Position numbers and translations under genes: made by a program
The notes under the pieces: model-generated
Seen by the model: the letters and a program-made list of their open reading frames with translations, nothing else
Database searches by the model: none
What the model was told of the DNA's origin: nothing
DNA from: a virus
Strand: one strand, 5' to 3'
Length of the DNA stretch: 64,000 nt
IMG/VR virus record: IMGVR_UViG_3300021354_000450
Span: 32,001 to 96,000 of that record
In this document: positions 1,616 to 3,270 of the stretch, one piece after another
How positions within the stretch are numbered: the first letter of the stretch is position 1
Layout of the letters: the number at the start of each line of letters is the position of its first letter

Positions 1616-1644
1616 TTGACATAAAATTTTAAAGACTATATAAT
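1616..1644 (+). promoter_or_regulatory. sigma70-type promoter of the tRNA island
   Basis: TTGACA-17 nt-TATAAT, perfect consensus. Confidence 0.85.
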
Positions 1645-1674: not shown

Positions 1675-1749
1675 GCGGATGTAACTCAGTGGTAGAGTTT
1701 TTGACTTCCAATCAAGATGTCGTGGGTTCAAATCCCATCGTCCGCTCCA
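1675..1749 (+). tRNA. tRNA-Gly(TCC)
   Basis: Cloverleaf: acceptor GCGGATG/CGTCCGC, anticodon loop CTTCCAA, GGTTCAAATCC T arm, encoded CCA. Confidence 0.93.
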
Positions 1750-1755
1750 AACAAT

Positions 1756-1831
1756 TGCGGGGTATATCAGAGGCAGATGGCCGGGCTCATAACCCGGAGG
1801 TCGTTGGTTCGAGTCCAACCCACCGCTACCA
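1756..1831 (+). tRNA. initiator tRNA-fMet(CAT)
   Basis: Anticodon arm CCGGG-CTCATAA-CCCGG with three G-C pairs, unpaired 1:72, TTCGAGT T loop, CCA end; one bulged A in the acceptor stem. Confidence 0.88.
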
Positions 1832-1835
1832 AAAA

Positions 1836-2030
1836 CCCGCTTACACTTTAGCGTATAAAAAGTGAGGCAAGACTAGGCCAGATTAGTCGGGTGCATGTGA
1901 TCTACCTTTTAGACCTTTTATAAAGGAAACTATAGAAATCATAGGACGGAATTAGAACCGTCCAAAGAAAAATACTAACGGACAGGGCAACACCTCAGTT
2001 TAGGGCTCGTGTGGTGCGTGTAGCTAAACC
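1836..2030 (+). ncRNA. candidate structured ncRNA 1 (multi-hairpin)
   Basis: No credible ORF, GC above background; stems CCCG/CGGG, CACTTT/AAAGTG, GACTAG/TTAGTC, TGTGAT/ATCATA, GGACGG/CCGTCC, GTTTAG/CTAAAC. Confidence 0.6.
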
Positions 2031-2042
2031 CTTTAAGGTTTT

Positions 2043-2933: not shown

Positions 2934-3036
2934 GTGACTGTAAGCAAATCAGGCAAAGCTCTTAACTCAAATGGTTAAGGAACAGGCAACGTTATAAACA
3001 ACGCCTTTGTAGGTTCAACTCCTACCAGTCATACCA
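2934..3036 (+). tRNA. atypical class II tRNA, probably tRNA-Leu(CAA)
   Basis: Acceptor GTGACTG/CAGTCAT, discriminator A plus CCA, Leu-type D loop GGCAAAGC, GTAGG-TTCAACT-CCTAC T arm, long variable arm; anticodon loop non-canonical. Confidence 0.7.
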
Positions 3037-3068: not shown

Positions 3069-3097
3069 TTGACATAGTAATAGATTTATGGTATAAT
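3069..3097 (+). promoter_or_regulatory. sigma70-type promoter
   Basis: TTGACA-17-TATAAT. Confidence 0.85.
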
Positions 3098-3102
3098 ACA
3101 TT

Positions 3103-3270
3103 ATGAATACAGATTTTTCTAATACACAAACAGTTGTCATTGTAGAACCAAATTTTGCAATTGAGACCGTTTTAGACGATAAATTAGACTATACAGGTGC
3201 AAAACTGTTATCACATAGTCAAAAAAAGCTCATTTCAACATTAAAGGAAAAAAATGAAAAACAAAGGTAA
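3103..3270 (+). CDS. small hypothetical protein (55 aa, possibly leaderless)
   Basis: ATG 5 nt after the -10 box; hand-translated MNTDFSNTQTVVIVEPNF... Confidence 0.45.
   Translation: MNTDFSNTQTVVIVEPNFAIETVLDDKLDYTGAKLLSHSQKKLISTLKEKNEKQR

Follow-up and report, generated by a model that had tools for sequence, protein, structure and literature searches.

The segment that begins 4 nt past the ACCA behind tRNA-Met, just where the original prediction had placed its start, is almost certainly a real structured RNA gene belonging to a new family, the members of which are ~200 nt long, are present in more than 120 uncultured-phage contigs, and fold into a row of four H-type pseudoknots, behind which lies a nearly invariant 3' module made up of two hairpins. 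It is, in short, a conserved, intricately folded, phage-specific RNA gene within tRNA transcription units. The window (the whole 64,000-nt stretch of DNA that was analyzed) corresponds to bases 32001-96000 of the 141-kb IMG/VR virus record IMGVR_UViG_3300021354_000450, which has a CheckV completeness of 40% and an AT-rich base composition (~29% G+C), and the DNA polymerase of which has its nearest relatives, at 42-47% identity, in 350-470-kb jumbo phages (Sinorhizobium phage Phosso and the GAP32/CBB group). As for the role of this RNA, the explanation that seems to account best for all the observations jointly, and for which we would claim slightly better than even confidence, is that of a stable ~200-nt RNA that is co-transcribed and co-processed with tRNAs and acts in trans via its 3' module. 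The features on which the following argument draws are collected in the table.

Features of the four-pseudoknot RNA locus (window coordinates; RNA letters are used within the element)
Feature	Coordinates	Strand	Details
Sigma-70-type promoter-like site	1616..1644	+	TTGACA-17-TATAAT, 12/12; ~30 nt upstream of tRNA-Gly
tRNA-Gly(UCC)	1675..1749	+	ARAGORN, Rfam
tRNA-Met(CAU) with following ACCA	1757..1831	+	tRNA at 1757-1827; ARAGORN, Rfam
Gene for the four-pseudoknot RNA	1836..2034	+	Full-length family member by CM and HMM; module A, ~1834-2034 by nhmmer
Pseudoknot a	1838..1864	+	5' tail CGCU 1838-1841 with AGCG 1850-1853 in the P2 loop
Hairpin P2	1844-1849 / 1859-1864	+	CACUUU / AAAGUG; 6/6 pairs with double changes, 93% paired
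Pseudoknot b	1866..1888	+	GGC 1866-1868 with GCC 1877-1879 in the P3 loop; z -9.3
Hairpin P3	1871-1875 / 1884-1888	+	GACUA / UAGUC; covaries in 100 homologues
Pseudoknot c	1889..1943	+	GGGU 1889-1892 with ACCU 1904-1907; z -6.5
Helix crossing the pseudoknot c pairing	1896-1901 / 1938-1943	+	UGUGAU / AUCAUA; covaries
Hairpin P5	1914-1918 / 1922-1926	+	CCUUU / AAAGG; inserted in the pseudoknot c loop; covaries
Pseudoknot d	1944..1978	+	P6 loop UUAG 1952-1955 with CUAA 1975-1978, across an A-rich linker
Hairpin P6	1944-1949 / 1958-1963	+	GGACGG / CCGUCC; covaries
GGAC and hairpin P7	1980..1995	+	GGAC nearly invariant; helix 100% paired, A-U/G-C exchange
Hairpin P8 with 3' tail CCUUU	1998..2034	+	Outer stem GUUUAG 1998-2003 / CUAAAC 2024-2029
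188-aa ORF	ATG at 2324		Ends the intergenic space holding modules A and B

Taken by itself, the element is richer in G+C than its flanks (0.43-0.44 vs 0.24-0.31), harbors no ORF of at least 25 aa within 1866-2139 on either strand and no internal direct repeats, and lacks a cloverleaf (acceptor, D, anticodon and T arms), the only tRNAs that ARAGORN and Rfam RF00005 place in the window being those at 1675-1749, 1757-1827 and 2934-3033; the GC-enriched, non-coding and non-tRNA character that had been ascribed to it thus holds. Its ends (CCCG... and ...CCUUU) show no complementarity to each other. Single-sequence folding, on the other hand, yields nothing significant (z = -0.69, with 42 of 200 shuffles folding equally well), and therefore the hairpins that can be drawn on the sequence prove nothing alone, and the proof has to rest on homologues.

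Such homologues are numerous. A pattern of 14 bases, drawn from the part of the element that is most conserved, occurs at no fewer than 120 loci in IMG/VR, and a covariance model (R1), built from a seed of 24 sequences among which is the window copy, confirmed 106 of the 120 pattern loci listed, some of them with two copies. The same model scores the window copy, itself a seed member, at 150.1 bits over model positions 1-202, and an HMM made from 99 members with the window copy left out recovers 1836-2034 end to end (model positions 1-202, E 2.3e-32) as its sole match in the 64 kb, the copy being also the single one in its own record. Some contigs (L118, L090, L076 and L069/L085) carry two diverged RNA copies, one scoring 100-160 bits and the other 40-53 bits. 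The low-scoring subfamily differs in the middle domain while keeping the 5' knots and the 3' module, and it typically lies between tRNA-Glu or tRNA-Tyr and tRNA-Asp.

The fold was evaluated as 43 pairs in nine helices on an alignment of 100 sequences (A2), in which standard pairs fill 86.9% of 4004 cells, as compared with 65.1% in shuffles and at most 45.5% in slid controls, while the covariation score reaches 0.512 against 0.164 in shuffles (none of 500 as high) and at most 0.106 in slid controls; compensatory double changes are seen in 39 of the 43 pairs. The window copy accommodates each of these helices, and all of those found are local, there being no helix that closes the 5' end upon the 3' end. 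Six hairpin helices that had been proposed from the single sequence (CACTTT/AAAGTG, GACTA/TAGTC, TGTGAT/ATCATA, CCTTT/AAAGG, GGACGG/CCGTCC and GTTTAG/CTAAAC) are real and covary in the 100 homologues. The CCCG/CGGG stem, which was to close a three-way junction, is not borne out (66% of cells paired vs 69% in shuffles, with 493 of 500 shuffles as good), and its strands are used in pseudoknots instead, i.e., 5' CGCU with the P2 loop (this 5' tail is not register-consistent in A2) and GGGU with ACCU. Likewise, the partial competition that had been suggested for an ACGGAC stretch gives way to the UUAG-CUAA pairing of pseudoknot d.

The pseudoknots are four pairings that the original prediction did not contain. 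When the partners of each pairing were permuted among members, the native duplexes were better in all four knots, with 0 of 2000 permutations as good in each case, and each knot is realized by 42-57 distinct complementary variants among 78 members. The tail-loop pairing of pseudoknot a has 42 such variants (permutation z -10.9); in pseudoknot b, it is a GGN triplet that pairs with the P3 loop across the family; the GGU/ACC pairing of pseudoknot c shows GGC/GCC and AGU/ACU compensations; and pseudoknot d, in which the P6 loop pairs with the 4-7 nt immediately 5' of the invariant GGAC, has 57 distinct complementary helix variants among the 78 members (permutation z -12.1), its second stem in the window copy being weak (4 bp, -1.4 kcal/mol).

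Four H-type pseudoknots in series inevitably bring tmRNA to mind (SsrA, RF00023, and the two-piece families), the body of which has the same count and order of them. Huge phages sometimes encode tmRNA among their tRNAs, and the family described here is likewise a single-copy gene of large phages with big tRNA sets: exactly one RNA copy is present in each of three genomes of 331 kb, 345 kb and, with terminal repeats, 172 kb, the completeness of which is rated 93-100%. A tmRNA-like or otherwise ribosome-directed RNA, interfering with or replacing host ribosome rescue or translation control, is nevertheless highly improbable, as the tRNA-like domain, with its T-arm and CCA end, is absent and the 5' and 3' ends are unpaired; ARAGORN and all the Rfam tmRNA models were negative (E <= 10); and neither a conserved reading frame nor a resume codon is present, the element holding no ORF that could serve as a tag frame and the A-rich linker varying in both length and frame among the members.

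The distribution of conservation along the molecule is uneven. Within the 5' pseudoknot body the sequence drifts freely while the pairing is kept, and the invariant columns are concentrated in the ~60 nt of the almost invariant 3' module, which consists of GGAC, P7, CAG and P8. Hairpin P7, which reads AGGGCAACACCU in the window copy and AGRGUAACNRCU as the family consensus, has a GNRA-like loop (GUAA, GCAA or GAAA) and one position that is always a purine-purine pair. P8 contains an invariant GGGC...GURGC internal loop, in which a fixed G and RG are flanked by G-C and G-U pairs, and has covarying outer and inner stems and a terminal loop with an almost invariant GG; in the window copy, it shows a single U-U mismatch (2007/2019). 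A division of labor might be read from this pattern, whereby the pseudoknot body would be a nuclease-resistant scaffold, the 5'-end pseudoknot and the 3' hairpin would guard against exonucleases, and the invariant 3' module would be the working end, binding one conserved partner in trans. That the RNA does act in trans by binding a partner through its 3' module is, judging from conservation, a tentative proposal to which we would give somewhat less than even confidence, and the partner, should there be one, would probably belong to the infected cell's machinery for translation or tRNA handling.

Several likenesses were considered for the parts of the 3' region and set aside. P7 presumably resembles helix 44 of the GTPase-associated center of 23S rRNA, a likeness short enough to be due to chance. 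A further stretch, AGCUCAGU, which we take to look like a tRNA D-arm, is also short and may be a chance match, and the covarying helices lend such a fold no support. Pairing of a UGG in the P8 loop with the CCA end of tRNA, as in T-box and RNase P RNAs, is an idea weakened by the many members carrying GGGA or GAGGA loops.

The genomic context is as uniform in one respect as it is varied in another: tRNA arrays hold 98 of 100 members, always on the tRNA strand, whereas the identity of the tRNA neighbors varies (Thr, Met, Gly, Asn, Glu, Tyr, Asp and others). Many members start 2-7 nt after a same-strand tRNA and often end 0-5 nt before the next one, which is the spacing that tRNA genes keep among themselves, and the following tRNA begins within 12 nt in 32 of the 100 contexts. 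As the RNA occupies what amounts to a tRNA slot, the enzymes trimming the neighboring tRNAs would release it. In the window, the promoter-like site upstream of tRNA-Gly is likely the start of a transcript comprising the two tRNAs and the RNA, so that the three would be transcribed together from a sigma-70 (host-type) promoter. Release by tRNA processing, as argued from the tRNA-like array spacing and the shared promoter-like site, is in our judgment likely. In the window, the RNA is not followed by a tRNA, and its 3' end is therefore not fixed by a neighbor; the transcript could continue past 2034, through the conserved module that follows, to a terminator-like hairpin at 2226-2242.

The tRNA-Met in question has an anticodon stem with the GGG/CCC run typical of initiators and an irregular acceptor stem, the Rfam alignment requiring a deletion at position 5. 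A P-loop kinase gene (AAA_33; polynucleotide kinase by PHROG) is located at 690-1154, some 0.5 kb ahead of the tRNAs.

An RNA abutting tRNAs within a few nt could also be a ribozyme, one that self-cleaves at its own end to free the neighboring tRNAs or that acts in trans on tRNA precursors, in which case the phage would depend less on host RNase P or RNase E. The size, the multiple pseudoknots and the block of invariant nucleotides fit the profile of a catalytic RNA, and there is a precedent in the HDV-like theta ribozymes, pseudoknotted RNAs found directly beside phage tRNA genes (PMC10879173). What the two have in common, however, is the tRNA-adjacent position only, as theta ribozymes are much smaller, have a nested double pseudoknot and cleave at their own 5' end; the HDV-type Rfam models gave no match, and the helix order differs from P1/P1.1/P2/P3/P4, an HDV-like nesting of P1 and P1.1 being absent. 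Among the Rfam models for ribozymes and RNase P, none matched at E <= 10, and nothing like the RNase P core (P1-P4, the long-range P4 helix, CR-I to CR-V) or any long-range helix of the P1/P4 type could be found. Moreover, the same fold is kept in members that follow an ORF or have no adjacent tRNA. Altogether, we regard catalysis as unlikely, and prefer the reading of an RNA that is released by tRNA-trimming enzymes and acts in trans.

Stable non-tRNA RNAs are known from phage tRNA clusters, and the parallel originally drawn with those of phage T4, species 1 (rnaC, 139 nt) and species 2 (rnaD, 119 nt; NC_000866 70908-71171), stands as far as position is concerned, both of them lying, like the four-pseudoknot RNA, a few nt from same-strand tRNA genes. 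It does not extend to homology: with filters off, model R1 found nothing better than 4.7 bits in NC_000866 69000-75000 and at most 1.2 bits on rnaC/rnaD. The T4 RNAs are also of smaller size, and rnaC terminates with a T-arm like that of a tRNA, whereas the four-pseudoknot RNA is without a tRNA-like part.

A closer resemblance might be sought in GOLLD (RF01998) and ROOL, phage/prophage RNAs that are often near tRNA islands and have many pseudoknots, as is the case here. Both form homo-oligomeric cages, and the family described could be a small self-assembling RNA-only particle of that kind. In GOLLD, the 3' half is conserved and the 5' half variable, a pattern it has in common with the four-pseudoknot RNA, and its env-38 member is likewise located downstream of tRNA-Met (PMC12286853). 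Contacts between molecules could be made by two GNRA-type loops (that of P7, and that of P8 in its GGGA variants), but these loops could just as well dock inside a single molecule. GOLLD and ROOL are, at ~580-800 nt vs 199 nt, three to four times larger, and their Rfam models matched neither the window copy nor eight other members. Self-assembly is, accordingly, quite improbable in our estimation. Complexity, pseudoknots and conservation per se would fit ribozymes and self-assembling RNAs as well as they would fit partner binding.

The remaining alternative is that the element is no free RNA at all and serves in cis the 188-aa gene behind it, be it as a 3'-UTR stabilizer, a terminator or a type III-style RNA antidote. 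This ORF has 67 relatives in IMG/VR, all inside tRNA arrays, and module A is present at 35 of those loci (nhmmer, CM). One clade has the 188-aa ORF so placed that no more than ~10 nt separate its stop codon from the start of the RNA; the window and one further locus (L067) have the order RNA, terminator-like hairpin, ORF; and the 3' tails are slightly U-richer where no tRNA follows (4.4 vs 3.4 T in 8 nt). Such a role is, nonetheless, very improbable, for the ORF adjoins the RNA in 32 of the 100 contexts, all of one clade, and the other 68 have no such ORF within 3 kb, most members lying directly between tRNAs. Nor does the ORF at 2324 match any Pfam or PADLOC model, or any toxin or defense model, and with no direct repeats in the RNA and no toxin-like neighbor, the features of a type III antitoxin (ToxI-like) are missing. 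P8 as an intrinsic terminator was also considered and rejected, the U excess in the tail being small.

By nhmmer against relatives, the intergenic space between tRNA-Met and 2324 is made up of two independent conserved modules, A being the four-pseudoknot RNA. Module B (~2057-2297) is a conserved non-coding stretch between it and the 188-aa ORF, has the terminator-like hairpin inside it, and was found by nhmmer in at least 10 related loci, where it usually precedes the ORF homologue by ~300 nt and stands apart from module A.

Clustering of the gene neighborhoods in the 100 contexts linked no protein family consistently to the RNA. The commonest protein neighbor, seen in 39 of them, is a small ORF (median ~76 aa) that precedes the homologue of the 188-aa ORF (e.g., L056:3595-4017); in this ORF and its counterparts in the 38 other contexts, an RNA polymerase omega/Rpb6 domain was recognized (PF01192, E 1e-12).

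As for the novelty of the family, Rfam 15 returned nothing other than tRNAs and noise for the window copy and eight other members, both at the gathering threshold and at E <= 10, which, along with the many homologues and the strong covariation, agrees with the earlier view that this is an ncRNA of a class that could not be named. When the window region and two divergent members were compared by blastn with 50,697 GenBank phage records, the outcome was tRNA matches or nothing, and the covariance model found no match in Phosso, GAP32 or CBB, to which, among cultured phages, the DNA polymerase is closest. Literature searches on tRNA-array RNAs and the invariant 12-mers retrieved no description of the four-pseudoknot family, and the accessible part of an IMG/VR-wide survey gives candidates of 29-151 nt only (PMC10690425).

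Outside of viral sequence collections, a conserved 27-base pattern looked for in 185,579 prokaryote species genomes occurs in one contig only, namely L190 (CAISPN010000008.1, 3011 bp) from a cyanobacterial MAG bin. It carries a tRNA array (Asp, Tyr, Asn) and a truncated RNA member at the contig end and, being itself little else than a 3-kb tRNA array with such a member, is most likely a mis-binned phage piece. The family is thus confined to phages and, apart from this contig, has been found in uncultured phages only.

Large, multiply pseudoknotted RNAs with invariant blocks have usually proved to be ribozymes, riboswitches or RNP cores. One might entertain the thought that the family is a new class of RNA machine, kept by large phages beside their tRNAs as a single-copy housekeeping gene, whether a tRNA-acting ribozyme or a compact self-assembling or ribosome-binding particle aiding the takeover of translation, a notion that we consider fairly unlikely. 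In any case, the family adds a well-defined and compact 200-nt class to the RNAs of phage tRNA islands, besides T4 species 1/2, GOLLD and ROOL, and its size makes it an easier subject than GOLLD/ROOL for probing, crystallography, cryo-EM and pull-downs. Its partner or activity, once found, could reveal how phages manage the tRNA supply or translation during infection.

Some of the tRNA genes met along the way are peculiar in their own right. A 100-nt tRNA-like gene at 2934-3033 of the window, scoring 31.9 bits with the Rfam tRNA model (just over the threshold) and not called by ARAGORN, has a good acceptor and T-arm and an ACCA end; its variable arm is long and its anticodon arm odd (CUUAA-CUCAAAUGG-UUAAG), and it may represent a class II tRNA similar to Leu(CAA), with 9 nt in the loop. 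Shortly behind it, at 3069-3097 and directly before an ORF at 3103, lies a second 12/12 sigma-70 promoter-like site, this one with an extended -10 TG. Many of the related arrays contain an unusually long, 92-nt "tRNA-Ile(tat)" as called by ARAGORN (L007:2937-3028, L008:4659-4750, L014, L015, L016 and L017), and the array of L190 includes a 91-nt tRNA with the amber-reading anticodon CTA.
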